Part shown: positions 51,152 to 59,114 of the stretch, piece after piece
Layout: every line of letters begins with the position of its first letter
Numbering within the stretch: position 1 is the first letter of the stretch
Assembly (NCBI GenBank): GCA_963755915.1
Contig: CAVWLP010000002.1
Coordinates: forward strand, 3,648,001 to 3,712,000
DNA from: an uncultured Phycisphaerales bacterium
GTDB taxonomy: Bacteria > Planctomycetota > Phycisphaerae > Tepidisphaerales > Tepidisphaeraceae
Reading direction: 5' to 3'
DNA length: 64,000 nt
Program-made: the position numbers and the translations under genes
Notes under the pieces: model-generated
Told to the model about the DNA's origin: nothing
Database searches by the model: none
What the model saw: the letters and a program-made list of their open reading frames with translations, nothing else

Positions 51152-51226
51152 GCGCCTGTAGCTCAATTGGCAAGCAGCGCCGCGCTTACATCGCGGAGGT
51201 TGCTGGTTCAAGTCCAGCCTGGCGCA
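51152..51226 (+). tRNA. tRNA-Val(TAC)
   Basis: Anticodon arm CCGCG-CT TAC AT-CGCGG; T loop TTCAAGT; one acceptor mismatch. Confidence 0.85.
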
Positions 51227-51271
51227 TGAAAGGACAAAGGCCGTGAAAACGCCTGGAAAATCAGGCCTTTT

Positions 51272-51343
51272 ACGCTGTTAGCTCAGAGGCAGAGCACCCG
51301 CCCGATAAGCGGGAGGCCGGAGAGTCGAGACCTCCACGGCGTA
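51272..51343 (+). tRNA. tRNA-Ile(GAT), degenerate T arm
   Basis: CCCGC-CC GAT AA-GCGGG; T arm reads GGAGAGTCGAGACCTCC. Confidence 0.7.
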
Positions 51344-51354
51344 CTGAAAATCTC

Positions 51355-51429
51355 GCACTGGTAGCTCAATCGGATCAGAGCTCCGGTCTACGAAACCGGA
51401 GGTTGAAGGTTCGAATCCTTCCCAGTGCA
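51355..51429 (+). tRNA. tRNA-Arg(ACG)
   Basis: CCGGT-CT ACG AA-ACCGG; canonical arms. Confidence 0.95.
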
Positions 51430-51488
51430 CTGGTGTCGTAAGTGATTGTATCTAATTACGATGTATTTGTGGTTGCTGATAAGGTTTC

Positions 51489-51560
51489 GCACTCGTAGCT
51501 CAACGGCGGAGCCACCGGCTCTTAACCGGTGGGTTGCAGGTTCGAATCCTGCCGGGTGCA
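51489..51560 (+). tRNA. tRNA-Lys(CTT)
   Basis: ACCGG-CT CTT AA-CCGGT. Confidence 0.93.
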
Positions 51561-51614
51561 TGAAAGGAGAATGTCAGATGAATCGGTTCAGGAGAAAACG
51601 GTGCAAATAATTCC

Positions 51615-51689
51615 GCACCGGTAGCTCAACGGAATCAGAGCAACCCTCTTCTAAAGGGTCGGCTGGGGGTTCGAATCCCTCCCGGTGCA
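51615..51689 (+). tRNA. tRNA-Arg(TCT)
   Basis: ACCCT-CT TCT AA-AGGGT. Confidence 0.93.
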
Positions 51690-51701
51690 TGCGGACAGTG
51701 C

Positions 51702-51773
51702 GCACCGGTAGCTCAATGGCAGAGCCGCCGCCTTTTAAGCGGAACCATGCAGGTTCGATTCCTGCCCGGTGCA
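51702..51773 (+). tRNA. tRNA-Lys(TTT)
   Basis: CCGC-CT TTT AA-GCGG. Confidence 0.9.
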
Positions 51774-51789
51774 TGAAGAGAAAAGTTTC

Positions 51790-51864
51790 GGTTCAGTAGC
51801 CCAACCGGCAGAGGCGCCTGACTCAGAATCAGACTTAGTGCAGGTTCGAATCCTGCCTGGACCA
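51790..51864 (+). tRNA. tRNA-Leu(CAG), short variable loop
   Basis: CTGA-CT CAG AA-TCAG; only about 6 nt before the T arm. Confidence 0.85.
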
Positions 51865-51873
51865 TAGAAAAAA

Positions 51874-52111
51874 GTTGCGGTAGCTCAATCGGATTGGCTC
51901 TGTCTCATGAATCATCGCGCGGCCAGACGAAGTGGATTTCGTCCTCGGGCAAGGAGCGACGACGAGCAGTATTGAACGGAAATACGGCGAGGAGGAGCGA
52001 CGCCGGCCGAGGACGAAAGACACGAGTCGGGCCCGCGAGGATTCATGAGACAGAGCCGAGAGCGCGGCTCTCCGAAGGCCGAGGTTGAAGGTTCGATCCC
52101 TTCCCGCGACG
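51874..52111 (+). tRNA. tRNA-Arg(CCG) with ~164-nt hairpin inserted in the D loop
   Basis: GTTGCGG-TA-GCTC-AATCGGAT [51895-52058] A-GAGC-G-CGGCT-CT CCG AA-GGCCG-AGGTT-GAAGG TTCGATC CCTTC-CCGCGAC-G. Confidence 0.85.
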
Positions 52112-52126
52112 TGAAAGAAAAACATT

Positions 52127-52198
52127 GGGCCCGTCGTCTAACGGGAAGACTCCTGGCCTGCAACCAGGAAATGAGGGTTCGATTCCCTCCGGCGTCCA
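52127..52198 (+). tRNA. tRNA-Ala(TGC)
   Basis: CCTGG-CC TGC AA-CCAGG; G3:U70 present; one bulged C in the acceptor stem. Confidence 0.85.
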
Positions 52199-52205
52199 TC
52201 GGATT

Positions 52206-52279
52206 GCTTCGGTAGCCCAACCGGAAGAGGCGCGTGATCGAGGTTCACGTCAGTGCAGGTTCGAGTCCTGCCCGGAGCA
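52206..52279 (+). tRNA. tRNA-Leu(GAG), short variable loop
   Basis: CGTGA-TC GAG GT-TCACG; variable loop TCAGT. Confidence 0.85.
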
Positions 52280-52292
52280 CTGAAAGCGTTTC

Positions 52293-52366
52293 GCCGCGGT
52301 AGCCCAATGGCAGAGGCGGTGGTCTCAAGAACCGTTTGTGTGTGGGTTCAAATCCCACCCGCGGCA
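52293..52366 (+). tRNA. tRNA-Leu(CAA), short variable loop
   Basis: GTGGT-CT CAA GA-ACCGT; variable loop about 6 nt. Confidence 0.85.
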
Positions 52367-52426
52367 TGAAAGGAGAATCCGATGAGTAGCGGCTCATCAC
52401 AAAAAAATAGCGAAGACTCCGATTGC

Positions 52427-52510
52427 GGAGGGTTGGCCGAACGGTAAGGCATCCGTCTCGAAAACGGACATGGCGCACGCGCCTTGGGGGTTCGAATCCC
52501 TCACCCTCCT
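52427..52510 (+). tRNA. tRNA-Ser(CGA)
   Basis: TCCGT-CT CGA AA-ACGGA; long variable arm. Confidence 0.9.
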
Positions 52511-52563
52511 TCCGACTCGCGCAGAGCGCTCGGCCTGCCGTGAGCGAGCGCAGCGAGTCGAAC

Positions 52564-52652
52564 GGAGGGTTGGCAGAGTGGCCTAACGCGCCGGGTTGCT
52601 AACTCGGAAGGCTTTGAAAAGGGCCTCGAAGGTTCGAATCCTTCACCCTCCG
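52564..52652 (+). tRNA. tRNA-Ser(GCT)
   Basis: CCGGG-TT GCT AA-CTCGG; long variable arm. Confidence 0.92.
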
Positions 52653-52719
52653 CTGGATTTTGGGCGGTACGAAAATGGTTCGTCCCGCGAAGTGTTCTTT
52701 GACAATCAGGTGGCGTATT

Positions 52720-52792
52720 GCCGTCATAGCTCAGCGGAATGAGCGTCCGGTTGTCAACCGGAAGGCCATGGGTTCAACCCCCATTGACGGCG
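52720..52792 (+). tRNA. tRNA-Asp(GTC)
   Basis: TCCGG-TT GTC AA-CCGGA. Confidence 0.88.
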
Positions 52793-52797
52793 TTTTT

Positions 52798-52868
52798 GTG
52801 GATTCAGCTCCAAGGTAGAGCGGGGGCCTGAAGAGCCCCAGGGCTTGGTTCGATTCCAGGAGTCCACA
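52798..52868 (+). tRNA. tRNA-Phe(GAA)
   Basis: GGGGC-CT GAA GA-GCCCC. Confidence 0.88.
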
Positions 52869-52878
52869 TTGAAGCGAT

Positions 52879-52949
52879 GCGTCGGTAGTTCAGCGGTCGA
52901 ACACCGCTATGCCAATGCGGAGGCCCGGGTTCTATTCCCGGCCGGCGCA
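52879..52949 (+). tRNA. tRNA-Gly(GCC)
   Basis: CCGC-TAT GCC AAT-GCGG; T loop TTCTATT. Confidence 0.8.
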
Positions 52950-52962
52950 CTGAGATTGACGA

Positions 52963-53034
52963 GCAGTGATAACTCAGCCGGGAGAGTGCCGGTCTTCCAA
53001 ACCGGAGACGTGGGTTCGAATCCCGCTCACTGCA
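52963..53034 (+). tRNA. tRNA-Gly(TCC)
   Basis: CCGGT-CT TCC AA-ACCGG. Confidence 0.9.
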
Positions 53035-53049
53035 TAATGCGAGTTTGAT

Positions 53050-53122
53050 GCCGTGGTAGCTCAAAGGGTAGAGCGGTCGTCTCGTAAACGACAGATCGCC
53101 GGTTCGATCCCGGCCCGCGGCT
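53050..53122 (+). tRNA. tRNA-Thr(CGT)
   Basis: GTCGT-CT CGT AA-ACGAC. Confidence 0.93.
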
Positions 53123-53136
53123 CTTAGGGATATTCT

Positions 53137-53210
53137 GGGTGCGTAGCTCAATGGCGGAGCAGGGGCCTCATAAGCCCAAGGTTGTTGGTTCGAATCCAAC
53201 CGTTCACCCA
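53137..53210 (+). tRNA. tRNA-Met or Ile2 (CAT)
   Basis: GGGC-CT CAT AA-GCCC; two extra nt in the acceptor 3' strand. Confidence 0.8.
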
Positions 53211-53227
53211 TTTTTAGAAACTTTTAT

Positions 53228-53300
53228 ACAGGGATAGTTCAATCGGTAGAACGCTCGGCTCTGAACCGGGTTGCTGGAGGTTCGAATCCTTCTCCCTGAA
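53228..53300 (+). tRNA. tRNA-Gln(CTG)
   Basis: CTCGG-CT CTG AA-CCGGG; unpaired 1:72. Confidence 0.88.
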
Positions 53301-53301
53301 C

Positions 53302-53374
53302 TGAGCCGTAGTTCAATCGGTAGCAATGCCGGTCTTTGAATCCGGCGATCGTGGTTCGAATCCACGCGGCTCAA
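53302..53374 (+). tRNA. tRNA-Gln(TTG)
   Basis: CCGG-TCT TTG AAT-CCGG; U1:A72. Confidence 0.85.
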
Positions 53375-53384
53375 ATACCTTAAT

Positions 53385-53458
53385 ACCTTCGTGGTGGAAT
53401 TGGTACCACACTCGGTTGTTACCCGATGAGATTGCAGGTTCGAATCCTGCCGAAGGTG
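53385..53458 (+). tRNA. tRNA-Asn(GTT)
   Basis: TCGG-TT GTT AC-CCGA; G73. Confidence 0.85.
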
Positions 53459-53460
53459 TT

Positions 53461-53570
53461 AGCGGAGCGAGACGCTCCGCTAGAAGGTAGAAAGTAGAGA
53501 GTAGAAAGTAGACTGAAATCCCGTCTTCCCTACTTTGTACTTTCTACTCTCAACTTTCTCGCGCAGCGCC
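53461..53570. repeat. Palindromic intergenic element with AGTAGA-type repeats
   Basis: AGCGGAGCG-AGA-CGCTCCGCT, then purine-rich arm 53482-53511 complementary to pyrimidine arm 53530-53559; right end matches 28270-28289 in reverse complement. Confidence 0.6.
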
Positions 53571-53642
53571 GCTCTCGTCGTCTAATGGTCAGGATAACCG
53601 GCCTTCAACCGGAGAGTGTGGGTTCGATTCCCTCCGGGAGCA
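53571..53642 (+). tRNA. tRNA-Glu(TTC)
   Basis: CCGG-CC TTC AA-CCGG; D arm GTCT AATGGTC AGGAT. Confidence 0.82.
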
Positions 53643-53656
53643 CTGCAAGTTCAATT

Positions 53657-53730
53657 CAGCGTGTGGCGAAGCTTGGCATCGCGCGTGCCTCGGGCGCACG
53701 AGATCGAAGGTTCGAATCCTTCCACGCTGA
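53657..53730 (+). tRNA. tRNA-Pro(CGG)
   Basis: CGTGC-CT CGG GC-GCACG; C1:G72, A73. Confidence 0.93.
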
Positions 53731-53740
53731 CTGTTTTAGC

Positions 53741-53825
53741 GCGTAGGTCGCATAACTGGCATTGCAGCGGGCTGTAACCCCGCCGACCCAACGGGTTTTT
53801 GGGGGTTCAAATCCCTCCCTACGCA
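53741..53825 (+). tRNA. tRNA-Tyr(GTA)
   Basis: GCGGG-CT GTA AC-CCCGC; long variable arm. Confidence 0.92.
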
Positions 53826-53846
53826 TTGCGGCCAGAGGCCGCGAAC

Positions 53847-53919
53847 GCGCCGGCTGTTCCAGCGGTGGAACGCCCGCCTCCAAATCGGGAAACGGCAGGT
53901 TCGATCCCTGCCCGGCGCT
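53847..53919 (+). tRNA. tRNA-Trp(CCA)
   Basis: CCCG-CCT CCA AAT-CGGG; atypical positions 8-9 and discriminator. Confidence 0.78.
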
Positions 53920-53929
53920 GAAACTTTTT

Positions 53930-54001
53930 GAGGATGTGGCCGAATGGCAAGGCGCGGGTCTGCAAAGCCTGCTGATGCTGGTTCGAATCCAGTCATCCTC
54001 T
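53930..54001 (+). tRNA. tRNA-Cys(GCA)
   Basis: CGGGT-CT GCA AA-GCCTG; U73. Confidence 0.9.
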
Positions 54002-54003
54002 TT

Positions 54004-54078
54004 GTGGCCGTAGCTCAACTGGATCAGAGCACCGGGATGTGGCCCCGGTCGTTGTGAGTTCAAATCTCACCGGTCACC
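54004..54078 (+). tRNA. tRNA-His(GTG), no encoded G-1
   Basis: CCGGG-AT GTG GC-CCCGG; C73; T at position -1. Confidence 0.9.
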
Positions 54079-54124
54079 CTGAAAAAATACGCCCCCTGTT
54101 GTCGGTTTGTGAAAGGAGTTTGAG

Positions 54125-54385
54125 ATGACGCGTGCAACGCAATTTGACGTTTTGCCGGCCGATGTCGGCGCCGCAAGCGTTGCGGTGATTCACGTTCGGT
54201 TTGCCGGACAAAGCTTTGACGTTCCGCTGGCGAGCCTGGATGTCGGCGTCCAAAGCGCTGACGGCGCCATCAGGGCAGCCGTGGCCAACTGGCTGAGAGT
54301 GTCGCCGGCCCGTCTGGAGGCCTATGTGATCGACCGCCATGCCAACGGCAATCTGACGATTCGTCCCGAAGCGGTTTTCGGATGA
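54125..54385 (+). CDS. Small Gly-terminated protein, candidate ubiquitin/ThiS-like modifier
   Basis: AAGGAG RBS; 86 aa; strand-strand-helix-strand pattern (VIHVRFAGQSFDVPL...IRAAVANWL...NLTIRPEAVFG-stop); ThiF gene in the same unit. Confidence 0.7.
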   Translation: MTRATQFDVLPADVGAASVAVIHVRFAGQSFDVPLASLDVGVQSADGAIRAAVANWLRVSPARLEAYVIDRHANGNLTIRPEAVFG

Positions 54386-54397
54386 ATCGTGTTGCCG

Positions 54398-54564
54398 TGC
54401 CGCGGCCGGGACGCCGGGATCGCACCCAACGCCAGAAGCTTACAAACAAGGTTGGCACGGCGGGCAACCGCTGTGCCAGGGGTGCGAATCCCCCCAGAGG
54501 TCCTGGTTAGGACCGCAACAGATGCTTTTGTGACTCGTGCGATCGCGGCGTCCCGGCCGCGGCA
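54398..54564 (+). ncRNA. Y-RNA-like ncRNA unit 1
   Basis: Long closing stem TGCCGCGGCCGGGACGCCG..GATCGCAC / GTGCGATC..CGGCGTCCCGGCCGCGGCA; CCAACG-N4-AAGC-TTACAAAC ... GCTT-TTGTGACTC; T-arm-like GGGG TGCGAAT CCCC. Confidence 0.75.
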
Positions 54565-54589
54565 AAATTCAGGAGTTTTATGGATCGAG

Positions 54590-54772
54590 ATCGGCCGCCT
54601 GCGAATTGCGGCCCGCGCCCAACGATTGGAGCATACAAACTGGTTGCTTGTGGGGATCATTTTCCCGCAATGAAGGTTCGAATCCTTCCACCCCGTCTTT
54701 GAAGAACTGTGCGGGGTGCGAAAATATTTGCTCCCGCAACTTGCGCGAACCGCAATTCGCCGGCGATCCGAT
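54590..54772 (+). ncRNA. Y-RNA-like ncRNA unit 2
   Basis: Stem GCGAATTGCGG / CCGCAATTCGC; CCAACG-N4-GAGC-ATACAAAC ... GCTC-CCGCAACTT; T arm GAAGG TTCGAAT CCTTC followed by closed acceptor-like stem CACCCCG/CGGGGTG. Confidence 0.78.
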
Positions 54773-54805
54773 TGGAACTTAATCACGGAGACGCCGCCAA
54801 AACAT

Positions 54806-54969
54806 TCTGCAGTACACGCCGTACCCAACGGCGCGAGCATACAAACGTTGCTAACGTAGAGGTTACGGGTTCGAGTCCCGTCAGGCCAGCTTTCAATCAT
54901 TCGGGCCTGTAGCTCAATGGTAGAGCGCTAAAAAGTGGCTCATGCGACTTGTATGGCGTGTTCTGCGGA
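54806..54969 (+). ncRNA. Y-RNA-like (YrlA-architecture) ncRNA unit 3
   Basis: Closing stem and shared motif; T arm ACGGG TTCGAGT CCCGT, closed acceptor CAGGCC..GGCCTG, TA, D arm GCTC AATGGTA GAGC (T arm before D arm). Confidence 0.85.
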
Positions 54970-54987
54970 TTTTATGAAAGGAAGAGA

Positions 54988-55163
54988 TCGATTCGCCGAT
55001 GCCGCGCCTGCACCCAACGGCAGGAGCATACAAACTTGCGGGTTCGAATCCCGCCATTTGCGAATGCAAATGACGTCCATTTGGAAGGACACCTGACTCA
55101 CAATCAGGCGTTTAACAACGCACAGCTCGTGTGACTTGTGCGGGCGCGGCGCCGGTGAATCGA
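54988..55163 (+). ncRNA. Y-RNA-like ncRNA unit 4 containing a complete permuted cloverleaf (anticodon-like CAC)
   Basis: Closing stem and shared motif; T arm GCGGG TTCGAAT CCCGC, acceptor CATTTGC-GAAT-GCAAATG, D arm GTCC ATTTGGAA GGAC, anticodon arm CCTGA-CT CAC AA-TCAGG. Confidence 0.85.
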
Positions 55164-55185
55164 CTTGACGGAAAGGAGCAGCACC

Positions 55186-56835
55186 ATGACGAACATGAAC
55201 GCACACCTCACGACCGAACAGGACGCACGTCTCCGGCTGCTGAACACGCTGCTGACGACGCCGCACCGCAAGCTCCAGAAAGTTCACCCGGTGCATGAAG
55301 AAATCGCGGCCAACGATCCGCGCTTCTACGTGCGCCTCGCTTCCTGGTACTTCGACCACGGCGACGTTCGCGACCACAAGGAAATGTTCGTGGTTTCGCT
55401 GGTTTTGAGCGATTTCGAAGGACACCGCGACGTTGGATTGGCCCTGCTGCGCCAGCTCCCGCCGTACGAAGTGGGGCGGGTGCTGGACTTCATCAACGGC
55501 CGCAAGACAACCCGTAAGGTGATCGTGCGCACTCGCAAGGCGCGCAAGGACCGCGCGGCTGCGAAGGCTCAGCCGGGCCTGATCAATCGAATCGCGCGCC
55601 TGGTGACGGGAAACGCCGCGGAATCGGCGGAAGCCGGGCCGACCGAAGCAGCGCCGGCGCCGGAAATCAAGCTGGTGACGGAAACCTTCGGGCTCTTCCG
55701 CAACCCGCCGCGCTCGCTACGGACGGAAATCGTCCGCTACCTGCGTGAACGCGAAGCCGACGGCGAATGGTTCGACAGCACCGTGCTCGTTGCCCGCAAG
55801 GCGATCAAGCGGCTGTACGCGCTGAACCACGTGAAGCCGGGTGATCGCGCCCAGCGGATCCTCTTCGACGAAGATCCGCCGGCCGGCAGCCGGATTTACG
55901 CTTTGCGCAAGCTCGCCGCCGCAACCACGCCGGCGGAGCAGGCGCAGGCGATTATCGACAACGCGATTCCGTATCGAGTCGCCCAGTCGGTCGTCAAGCA
56001 GATGACGCCGACGATTCTGCTGGCCCTGATCGAGCGGATGAGCCCTCAGGAACTGATTAACAACGTCGCCTCGCTGACGAAGCGCGGCGCGATGGACAAT
56101 CCGGACCTGAAGGCGTTGATCGACCAGAAGCTTGAGCAGGCCCAAACGGCCCAGCGGGTTAGCGGGCTCAAGGCGCAGAAGGCGATTGAGTCGGCCGGCG
56201 CAACGGTGTCGCCGGACGTGAAGGCGAAGCTCGAAAGCGTCGCCGACGCGCAGATCAAGGCTAAGGGCCGGATCGACCGTCCCACGGCGCTGCTCATCGA
56301 CAAGTCGGGCTCGATGTCGCTGGCGATTGAACTCGGCAAGCGCATCGGCGCCCTGATTTCCGCGATCTGCCGCGCGGAGCTCTTCGTCTACGCGTTCGAC
56401 ACGATGGCTTACCCCATCGAGCGCGGCGGCGACGACCTTGCTTCGTGGGAAAAGGCGCTGGTTGGCATCAAGGCCGGCGGCGGAACGAGCTGCGGAGTCG
56501 CCGTCGAGGCGATGCGCATCCGCAAGCAGTACGTCGAGCAGATCATTCTCGTCACCGACGAGGGTGAAAACACGGCGCCGCTGTTTGTGCCCACGCTGCA
56601 GAAGTACCGGGAAACGGTCAAGGCCGTTCCCAACATCTGCATCGTTCGCGTCCCGCGCAGCGTGACGACGGTTGAGTCGAATTGCCGCGCGGCTGGTTTG
56701 ATGGTCGATGTGTTCCAGTTCGCCGGCGACTACTACTCGCTGCCGAACCTGGCGCCGCTCCTGAGCAAGCCGAGCAAGCTCGAATTGCTCATGGAGATCC
56801 TGGAGTACCCTCTGCCGAAGCGGAGGTCGGCGTAA
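55186..56835 (+). CDS. Ro60/TROVE-like helical protein with C-terminal vWA domain
   Basis: AAAGGAG RBS; basic helical N-terminal region (DPRFYVRLASWY, MSPQELINNVASL); MIDAS residues LLIDKSGSM, GGTS, ILVTDEGEN; adjacent to Y-like RNAs. Confidence 0.75.
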   Translation: MTNMNAHLTTEQDARLRLLNTLLTTPHRKLQKVHPVHEEIAANDPRFYVRLASWYFDHGDVRDHKEMFVVSLVLSDFEGHRDVGLALLRQLPPYEVGRVLDFINGRKTTRKVIVRTRKARKDRAAAKAQPGLINRIARLVTGNAAESAEAGPTEAAPAPEIKLVTETFGLFRNPPRSLRTEIVRYLREREADGEWFDSTVLVARKAIKRLYALNHVKPGDRAQRILFDEDPPAGSRIYALRKLAAATTPAEQAQAIIDNAIPYRVAQSVVKQMTPTILLALIERMSPQELINNVASLTKRGAMDNPDLKALIDQKLEQAQTAQRVSGLKAQKAIESAGATVSPDVKAKLESVADAQIKAKGRIDRPTALLIDKSGSMSLAIELGKRIGALISAICRAELFVYAFDTMAYPIERGGDDLASWEKALVGIKAGGGTSCGVAVEAMRIRKQYVEQIILVTDEGENTAPLFVPTLQKYRETVKAVPNICIVRVPRSVTTVESNCRAAGLMVDVFQFAGDYYSLPNLAPLLSKPSKLELLMEILEYPLPKRRSA

Positions 56836-56884: not shown

Positions 56885-57586
56885 ATGCGCTCGGACATGG
56901 CCAAAGTAATCGTGGAACGGCCCCGCAGAGGCGGCGGAATCCGTTATCCGCGCAGTCACCCGGATTCCCATCGATTGGACATCGAGGATTTCCGCAGTCG
57001 CCAGGGCATGCGCCGGCCGTGGCTCAGTTCCCACGCAAAGGGATTGAATGAAAACCTCGCGCCCCTGGAGCGCTATCTGCGAACCCACGTGGGCCGCCCG
57101 TGGGATGACATTTACAGCGAGATTTGCGAGCACATGAATCGCAATTCCGCCGTTCAACTGCACATCTGGCAGCACCTAATGCAATTTGTCTGCAGAGATG
57201 TTTATGTCACGCTCGGTTTGGTCAAGCCGTCATGGTGGCACGGCGCGGGAAGGTTTTATGTCGACCCGAGCACGGGAATATTGCGCGAAAATCTGTTCAG
57301 GTGGCGCTACCGGCGGCCCGAACCGAAGCCCGATCCAAACCGCGTTCCAGCGAGCGAGGATATCGAATATCGGCGAATTGAGGGCATCTGGTATGAATTG
57401 CGCTTGGCGCCGATTCCGAAGTTTCGCATCGGCTACGACTTCGCGATCAGAAAACATCTGACCGAAATCAGCGACGATCTCCTTCACAAGTTTTACGACC
57501 GACAGGTTTACGCCGCGAGGAAACGCCAATTGAACAAGAAAGAAATCAGAAAACTTGGACTGACAACGGCAGGGACAAAATCTTGA
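56885..57586 (+). CDS. Arg/aromatic-rich hypothetical protein
   Basis: MRSDMAKVIVERPR...LNENLAPLERYL..VGRPWDDIYSEIC...FYVDPSTGIL...KRQLNKKE; overlaps the next start codon. Confidence 0.7.
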   Translation: MRSDMAKVIVERPRRGGGIRYPRSHPDSHRLDIEDFRSRQGMRRPWLSSHAKGLNENLAPLERYLRTHVGRPWDDIYSEICEHMNRNSAVQLHIWQHLMQFVCRDVYVTLGLVKPSWWHGAGRFYVDPSTGILRENLFRWRYRRPEPKPDPNRVPASEDIEYRRIEGIWYELRLAPIPKFRIGYDFAIRKHLTEISDDLLHKFYDRQVYAARKRQLNKKEIRKLGLTTAGTKS

Positions 57587-58460: not shown

Positions 58461-59114
58461 ATGCCCGGAGCCTTCCATCACGAATCCCTCTACCGCGGCC
58501 CCGAAGCGCTTGCGCGGCTGGCGTCGCTGCGCATCACCCTCTGCGGCGCCGGCGCGATCGGTTCGAACCTGGCCGACAACCTCGTCCGCCAGGGCGCGGC
58601 GAAACTGCGCGTCATCGACGACGACCGCGTCGAGCAGCACAACATTTCCACGCAAATCTACGGCGAATCAGATGTAGGCGTCTGGAAGGTCGAAGCCTTG
58701 CGGAACCATCTTTTCCGCGCCTGCGGCATCGAAATTGACGCCGTGCGGAAAAGACTCACCGCGCAAAACGCCGGATCGCTTCTGAAAGATGCCGATCTGG
58801 TTATCGATGCGCTCGACAATTCGCAGTCGCGCCAGATCGTGCAAGACCATGCGCGAGCAACCAATGTCCCGTGCATTCACATCGGCCTGTACGAAGACTA
58901 CTGCGAATCGATTTGGGACGAGCAATACCGCGTGCCCGCGGATCGTGCGAATCAGCATGACGTTTGCGATTATCCGCTGGCCCGGAACCTGGTACTGCTC
59001 GCTGTCGCGATTGCGTCAGAAACGATCGTGAAATGGCCCGCCACCGGCGAGCGTGCGAATCTCTCCGCGACGCTCAAAGATTTTGCGGTCAGGCCCCTGG
59101 TGCAGCGGGTTTGA
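58461..59114 (+). CDS. ThiF/MoeB/E1-family adenylyltransferase
   Basis: LCGAGAIGS, IDDDRVEQHNISTQ, KVEAL, VIDALDN; no CxxC zinc pairs; lone Cys in DVCDYP. Confidence 0.9.
   Translation: MPGAFHHESLYRGPEALARLASLRITLCGAGAIGSNLADNLVRQGAAKLRVIDDDRVEQHNISTQIYGESDVGVWKVEALRNHLFRACGIEIDAVRKRLTAQNAGSLLKDADLVIDALDNSQSRQIVQDHARATNVPCIHIGLYEDYCESIWDEQYRVPADRANQHDVCDYPLARNLVLLAVAIASETIVKWPATGERANLSATLKDFAVRPLVQRV

Follow-up and report, generated by a model that had tools for sequence, protein, structure and literature searches.

The question raised by this locus is why RNAs resembling bacterial Y RNAs should contain tRNA arms in rearranged order, among them what looks like an anticodon arm. The window, that is the whole 64,000-nucleotide stretch of Phycisphaerales DNA analysed here, carries on its + strand, in this order, a tRNA array, a small ORF ending in Gly, an RNA scaffold repeated four times (units 1 to 4, together spanning 54398-55156), a 549-aa ORF, two ORFs lacking Pfam matches and a ThiF-family gene (Table 1). 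The first-pass annotation had read units 3 and 4 as differently permuted tRNA mimics. Contigs from three runs of one study, possibly of the source sample, are identical to units 3 and 4 wherever they cover them; one (X1) covers 54676-55212 and two others (X2 and X3) cover parts of unit 4, all without differences. The DNA contigs of those runs contain neither joints nor changes over the locus, and promoter and terminator scans gave matches at chance level only. Within the array, a tRNA gene with a GAT loop at 51272-51343 (Rfam, 51.2 bits) was overlooked by ARAGORN, a tRNA-like gene at 51874-52111 has its D loop interrupted by a long hairpin, and long hairpin-like spacers at 53461-53560 and 52496-52562, possibly repeats or small mobile elements, separate array tRNAs. 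The host RtcB gene (G000:C2:2203413-2204747) lies ~1.5 Mb from the Y-like RNA locus.

Table 1. Features of the locus, with position in the window, strand and support
tRNA array, long	51152..54079	+	26 ARAGORN calls
Small Gly-ended ORF	54125..54385	+	No Pfam match; relatives at 67/80 loci of the Ro-like gene
Unit 1, common scaffold with hairpin, T-like arm and second hairpin	54398..54564	+	Fold z -9.1
Unit 2, common scaffold with hairpin, T arm and acceptor-like stem, no D arm	54596..54765	+	Sequence; fold z -5.3
Unit 3, YrlA-type RNA	54806..54969	+	Rfam YrlA, 50.7 bits; fold z -4.8; ends inferred
Unit 3, lower anticodon stem ACG/CGT (ACG 54845-47), loop TTGCTAA (54848-54; triplet 54850-54852), 3' strand CGTAG (54855-59)	54845..54859	+	Sequence; split-stem test
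Unit 3, variable region AGGTT (54860-64), T arm (54865-81), 6-bp acceptor (54882-87 with 54904-09) with 16-nt loop, TA, D arm (54912-26), then G	54860..54926	+	Rfam alignment
Unit 3, CTA, predicted upper anticodon stem with TAG (54857-59)	54928..54930	+	Register also pairs in relatives
Unit 4, Y-like RNA, long terminal stem and four-arm tRNA body	54995..55156	+	Fold z -5.9; family consensus; ends inferred from predicted stem
Unit 4, scaffold 5' side: GCACCCAAC, second stem, ATACAAAC linker	55010..55035	+	Repeated in all four units
Unit 4, T arm	55038..55054	+	Sequence; pair probabilities 0.99-1.0
Unit 4, acceptor stem, 7 bp (55055-61 with 55066-72), GAAT closing, no CCA	55055..55072	+	Sequence; fold
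Unit 4, D arm, 4 bp, GG in loop	55075..55090	+	Sequence; fold
Unit 4, anticodon arm, 5 bp, loop CTCACAA (triplet 55099-55101)	55092..55108	+	32/44 relatives; covariation
Unit 4, scaffold 3' side GACTTG	55133..55138	+	ACT[CT] in 39/44 relatives; ACUUG in Rfam YrlA consensus
Divergent Ro60-fold gene (helical ring and vWA), likely partner	55186..56835	+	AlphaFold, Foldseek, phmmer
ThiF/E1-like gene	58461..59114	+	Pfam ThiF, E 1e-30; relatives at 43/80 Ro-like loci

The protein encoded by the 549-aa ORF is, on the strength of its predicted structure, the likely partner of the Y-like RNAs. Foldseek matches ranked 1-11 for its AlphaFold model (pLDDT 83.9) are all Ro60 chains (E 9e-11 to 2e-8, TM 0.52-0.62 for the predicted model), and phmmer relates it weakly to the Ro60 of Thermus phage phiLo (E 0.005-0.006), the nearest solved relative by sequence (PDB 9kop, 9l5y). 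No Pfam family, TROVE (PF05731) included, and no NCBIfam family matched the protein, and the TROVE profile found no match anywhere in the host genome. At least 2,761 relatives of the protein exist, the closest named ones in Phycisphaerae and other Planctomycetota; a search of 12 genomes of the same genus (59-93% complete) did not find the gene, and genome searches gave few homologs, in three of 61 relatives and three of 401 genomes of a class sample. At 80 loci of the Ro-like gene in named genomes, the scaffold motif is present at 70, with two or more copies at 62 (reversed control, 2); the ORF at 57583 recurs at 52, and at least three tRNAs lie within 5 kb at 12. All four units are encoded within 4 kb of the Ro60-fold gene and on the same strand, and each is predicted to form the long end-to-end stem with a bulged helix expected of a Y RNA, with the MFE fold of unit 2 differing in detail from the layout read from its sequence. 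The GNCGAA(N)G motif of the Ro site is absent from all four units, which carry CCCAA, and GNCGAA occurs in one of the 44 relatives of unit 4 described below; because of this replacement, the proposed binding to a Ro60 ring rests on fold and linkage. In the scaffold of unit 4, GCACCCAAC is the likely candidate for the Ro-binding strand.

The body carried by unit 4 is a complete four-arm tRNA in rotated order, opened in the variable loop. The acceptor stem is separated from the D arm by AC, and a single A precedes the anticodon arm, CCTGA-CTCACAA-TCAGG. The predicted fold is a cloverleaf on a long stem (-79.1 kcal/mol; none of 200 shuffles as good), in which the five anticodon-stem pairs have probabilities of 0.24, 0.98, 0.99, 0.99 and 0.90. 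Two features depart from the tRNA core, A at position 8 and U15:U48; relatives of unit 4 have U8 in 39 of 44, A14 in 41 and R15:Y48 in 40. An additional variable stem between AAAC of the scaffold and GTTT behind the anticodon arm was considered and rejected, its pairing probability in unit 4 being 0 and GTTT occurring in 4/44 relatives. The 3' end of the unit lies ~30 nt upstream of the Ro60-fold ORF.

Conservation of the anticodon arm was assessed in relatives harvested from metagenome contigs with a pattern (TACAAAC, 1-5 bases, T arm) that is blind to everything 3' of it, including the anticodon arm. The harvest covered 120 of an estimated 160 stretches, with full flanks for 80. It gave 121 pattern matches, 106 of them distinct, and five incomplete ones were dropped; the remaining 101 comprised 41 ordinary tRNA tails, 16 without an acceptor-plus-D parse and 44 non-tRNA sequences with acceptor and D arm. 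An ARAGORN filter separated tRNAs from Y-like matches, an earlier filter on terminal-duplex energy having passed real tRNAs. One of the 16 unparsed matches (L141) has the unit-4 layout by eye and was excluded, and two doubtful ones (L086, L137) were kept in the 44.

A 5-bp stem with a 7-nt loop stands one base 3' of the D arm in 32 of the 44 relatives (mean 0.35 and maximum 3 over 1000 shuffles), and in 37 when loops of 6-9 nt are counted, five having a perfect stem with a loop of 6, 8 or 9 nt. Y32 occurs in 27 of these 32 loops, U33 in 31, R37 in 29 and A38 in 25, the features of a U-turn-type anticodon loop. An unfitted MAFFT alignment of 45 rows was made from 42 of the 44, without L086 and L137, together with unit 4 of the window, L004 and L008, and RNAalifold predicts all four arms (T, acceptor, D, anticodon) from it. 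Pairing of the anticodon stem reaches 90% in this alignment, compared with 54.8% when shuffled and 24-41% when slid, controls that ignore kinship (the 32 relatives form 24 clusters at 75% identity, with a median pair identity of 56%), and all five of its pairs show double, compensatory changes. Viral contigs yielded 35 matches, 30 of them distinct (26 tRNAs, one unparsed and three with acceptor and D arm), and all three of the last group have the anticodon arm. The arm seen in unit 4 at first pass is thus borne out by the predicted fold, the relatives and covariation. Three relatives with a perfect stem (L004:4770-4905, L183 and L095) cannot display a triplet in the usual way because their anticodon-type loop has 6 nt.

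The Ro-like gene lies in the available flank of 11/44 unit-4 relatives, or of six out of 18 when only flanks reaching 1 kb or further downstream are considered; Pfam TROVE was found in none of the 51 flanking ORFs searched (of 71). Because of these counts, some unit-4 relatives may serve other partners. Six RNAs of this type (L088, L090, L095, L128, L138, L148) use another version of the scaffold (GCGACCTA ... CTTTCGC-like) and have no Ro-like match in their available flank; their partner may be another protein.

Unit 3 is opened elsewhere. Because ACG, 5' of the loop, and CT(A), 3' of the D arm, each pair with CGTAG, the anticodon stem is rebuilt from both sides; its completion by CTA is an addition to the first-pass reading. 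CGTAG occupies positions 39-43 in tRNA numbering, of which 39-41 face ACG and 43-42(41) face CT(A). On this layout the tRNA body is opened within the anticodon stem, on its 5' strand, with the Y-RNA handle exiting at ~28/29. The case for unit 3 is a comparative one because the energy model disfavours its cloverleaf (-62.1 kcal/mol when constrained, 7.9 kcal/mol less stable than the predicted minimum of -70.0), with probabilities of ~0.1 for the lower anticodon pairs. The unit matches the whole of the Rfam YrlA model (E 3e-10), and unit 4 matches model positions 29-81 only (24.6 bits); both fall below the 69-bit Rfam gathering score of this family.

For comparison with unit 3, non-tRNA sequences with acceptor and D arm and with the scaffold motif at least 12 bases 5' of the T arm were collected, giving 68 units and, after clustering at 70%, 37 representatives. 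A split stem, defined as at least two pairs on each side and five in total with the variable region fixed at 5 nt, is present in 11 of the 37 (mean 0.86 and maximum 6 over 5000 permutations). In twelve, the Salmonella-like form, both strands of the stem lie on the 3' side and there is no anticodon-like loop; the remainder fit neither description. Among the 68 units, the 22 with a split stem have U33 in 20, R37 in 20 and A38 in 21, and carry 15 triplets. Both layouts occur together at ten loci of the Ro-like gene besides the window, and the claim that the cloverleaf had been opened at two different points is upheld by sequence and by the relatives.

These observations bear on the possibility that the arms are leftovers of a tandem-tRNA origin, as in the dimeric-tRNA model, in which different pieces were kept, only the elbow matters and the anticodon arm merely stabilises the RNA. 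Taking the T arm from one tRNA and the D arm from the next would yield both layouts (10.1101/312249, accessible sections), the 12 unit-3-type RNAs without a loop are in keeping with this scenario, and units 1 and 2 bear other payloads. The position of the arm, its 7-nt loop and U33 nevertheless persist at a median identity of 56% with compensatory changes, which is more than a generic hairpin would need, and this leftover reading is quite unlikely.

If the arm is kept, the triplet is not. Among the 32 unit-4-layout arms there are 19 different triplets, none of them CAC, and only two of ten close pairs of relatives share a triplet. GCT recurs in one of 21 other split-stem units (L023). Any special significance of the CAC and GCT loops therefore fails the conservation check suggested at first pass, and a codon-specific role for them is ruled out by this lack of conservation together with the host genome's own tRNA-Val(CAC) and two tRNA-Ser(GCT) genes. 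Val(CAC) is indeed missing among the 26 ARAGORN calls of the adjacent array, as had been observed; this gap needs no filling because the gene is present elsewhere in the host genome.

It is also hard to regard units 3 and 4 as precursors of true tRNA-Ser(GCT) and tRNA-Val(CAC) that would pass through a circular form on the way to the mature tRNA, the route taken in algae and archaea. The rearranged bodies do pass ARAGORN under these two names, yet the test is too lenient for the arm, accepting 42 of the 44 relatives but also 524 of 880 shuffled-arm controls (60%). Serine tRNAs carry a long variable arm, which is missing from unit 3. The best identities of the two bodies to host tRNAs are 68% and 60%, in both cases to tRNAs of other acceptors, the host already has both tRNAs, and triplets found in relatives include stop-reading ones. 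A conserved anticodon matched to its tRNA body, as a working permuted tRNA would have, was found in neither the units nor their relatives. Known junctions, moreover, need a splicing endonuclease (PMC3978253), which the accessible text of 10.1101/312249 describes as not reported in bacteria. The precursor role suggested at first pass is, on these grounds, scarcely credible.

Loss of the triplet with retention of the loop could also be expected of a decoy or sensor, in which anticodon nucleases would cut or bind the Ro-held mimic instead of real tRNAs and the triplet would track the local nucleases. The canonical loop architecture is retained in relatives, the triplet differs in eight of ten close pairs, and the authors of PMC8421152 speculate, in the accessible text, that the tRNAs of such arrays act as a sponge for toxin RNases. 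Triplets of unit-3-type loops show a lean towards ordinary anticodons, 20/22 being among the 44 that count as ordinary in the host (P 0.001 against a shuffle mean of 16.2, with related rows), although counting distinct triplets gives 13/15, which is not significant (P 0.11). This lean is a hint that would fit a decoy or a recent tRNA origin better than shape alone. Unit-4-type triplets, by contrast, include stop-reading and A34 kinds, with 24/32 ordinary against 23.9 in column shuffles, so that the eight outside the ordinary set are what chance gives; five of the 44 relatives cap a perfect stem with a loop of 6, 8 or 9 nt, and the real tRNAs of the array would already do as decoys. A decoy function appears rather unlikely for these reasons.

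A further possibility concerns the acceptor stem. RNase P might open the acceptor loop and CCA might then be added, giving a chargeable two-piece tRNA in which the Ro handle is a giant variable arm. The acceptor of unit 4 has 7 bp, N73+CCA is encoded in the acceptor-closing loop of 9/44 unit-4-type relatives (L090, L102, L107, L119, L122, L127, L128, L147, L155; 0.7 expected) as against 0/37 unit-3-type ones, and these nine are candidates for RNase P processing on the evidence of their sequence. Precedents are the YrlA of M. smegmatis, which is cut by RNase P and receives CCA (PMC4201824), and the permuted two-piece tmRNA (PMC3978253), as described in the accessible sections of both papers. 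However, the loop of unit 4 has 4 nt and lacks CCA, the acceptor of unit 3 has 6 bp, the closing loop at the 7-bp register is 4 nt or shorter in 21/44 relatives, and an encoded CCA may be a relic of an origin from tandem tRNA genes. Processing into a chargeable two-piece molecule is improbable. Units 3 and 4 are likely to be unchargeable, and only likely because RNase P does cut the closed 7-bp acceptor of M. smegmatis YrlA (PMC4201824, accessible sections).

The reading favoured here, on balance a probable one, is that the units would be shape adaptors, tethered to Ro60, that address tRNA-binding machinery under translation stress; it is favoured because the arm and the shape of its loop are kept while the triplet drifts. 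The long terminal stem would dock on the adjoining predicted Ro60-fold ring. The payload, a circularly permuted tRNA body, would offer readers of tRNA shape an uncharged L-shaped surface with an anticodon arm, and the points at which the handle exits (the variable loop and the upper 5' anticodon strand) would spare both the elbow and the anticodon loop. What selection would maintain is the arm together with a loop of U-turn type (Y32, U33, R37, A38), and not the triplet. Upon translation damage, an expressed RNA of this kind might bring the Ro60-like ring to the ribosome or to enzymes of tRNA repair, modification or decay, acting alongside the spare-tRNA array. A role as tRNA mimic on a Y-RNA scaffold, as first proposed, is thus supported, as far as sequence comparison goes, by conservation and covariation of the unit-4 arm, the split stems of unit 3 and the Ro60 fold. 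Weighing against the shape-adaptor reading are the replaced Ro-site motif, the minority of unit-4 relatives with a Ro-like gene in their flank, A8 and U15:U48 in unit 4, the energy of the unit-3 cloverleaf, the lean of unit-3-type loops towards ordinary anticodons, the kinship among relatives and the distance to RtcB. Published accounts, in the sections accessible, agree with individual elements of this reading: Y RNAs tether Ro60 to effectors (PMC4201824), YrlA adopts the tRNA L-shape (10.1101/312249) and long tRNA arrays are induced by translation stress (PMC8421152).

A broader version would hold that complete tRNAs tethered to Ro60 are widespread in bacteria and phages, with the anticodon loop as a swappable bait or reader, the N-CCA members opened at the acceptor and charged, the Y-RNA handle serving as a giant variable arm, and the Ro60 ring, accompanied by E1-type modification genes, carried to the ribosome or to anticodon nucleases; taken as a whole, this is unlikely. 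What the bacterial tRNA-like domain binds is an open question in the accessible parts of the Y-RNA papers. Those papers describe YrlA as lacking an anticodon loop and for that reason locate the effector at the elbow. At this one locus, Y RNAs carry the complete surface of a tRNA and differ in where it is opened. RNAs of this kind, missed at the Rfam threshold, accompany a clade of the Ro60 fold that Pfam TROVE does not match and that has at least 2,761 relatives.

Several known systems share parts of this arrangement. The array is similar to L-arrays and the Anabaena trn operon in its ~26 tandem tRNA genes and its patchy occurrence among relatives (PMC8421152, accessible sections), and the main text of that paper contains no mention of TROVE, Ro60 or Y RNA. 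In phage phiLo, Yrl1 and Yrl2 lie upstream of the Ro60 gene, as here, but use CGAA (PMC12135203, accessible sections); the words anticodon, tRNA-like and permut- are not present in the main text of that article. In common with the permuted tRNA genes of algae and archaea, the units have the 3' half first, an acceptor closed by a short loop and a complete cloverleaf. The permuted genes mature at BHB junctions at 20/21, 37/38, 50/51 or 59/60, whereas the openings here, at ~28/29 and in the variable loop, differ from these four and lead into the conserved Y-RNA stem (PMC3978253, accessible sections for all these points). The Ro60-bound Yrn1 of Deinococcus radiodurans has a modelled 5-bp anticodon-like arm, but with a 6-nt loop, a doubtful D arm and the T and D arms in the opposite order, the anticodon arm lying between them; this opposite order rules out unit 4 as a copy of the Yrn1 layout (PMC4201824, accessible sections).

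The closest relative is YrlA (RF02553), described as having T arm, closed acceptor and D arm and as lacking an anticodon loop (PMC4201824 and 10.1101/312249, accessible sections). Units 3 and 4 share this order of arms and the tRNA-invariant bases (unit 4 deviating at 8 and 15), and the units also share with YrlA a YUAY-like linker, 3' ACUUG and the placement of several RNAs in a row upstream of a Ro60-fold gene. They differ from YrlA in the change of CGAA to CCAA and in a partner protein outside Pfam TROVE. The contrast with YrlA drawn in the first-pass annotation was overstated for unit 3, since published seed members share its loop: by eye, the unit-3 layout is present in the YrlA seed rows of M. 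smegmatis, Streptosporangium, Gordonia and phage ET08 (PMC4201824, supplementary text 2). The M. smegmatis row reads CCA-CTTCTAA-TGG, followed by AA that pairs with TT 3' of the D arm. Such an arm already bears the name 'V' stem-loop in YrlA (PMC4201824), and the word anticodon is absent from the text, figures apart, of the five supplementary files of that paper. Unit 3 is therefore nearly a YrlA, and what is new is the reading of the V stem-loop as an in-register anticodon loop, a reading that also applies to the YrlA of M. smegmatis, which is tractable as a model; swaps of loop, triplet and handle position would make testable what the tRNA-like domain binds. For unit 4 the contrast stands, with a full anticodon arm 3' of the D arm and the handle on the variable loop rather than on the anticodon stem. 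By eye, none of 11 YrlA seed rows has this layout (PMC4201824, supplementary text 2), and a search of titles and abstracts, with most subscription papers outside it, returned no Y RNA with the T-acceptor-D-anticodon order. Unit 4 is new as a Y RNA whose payload is a whole tRNA with its opening in the variable loop.
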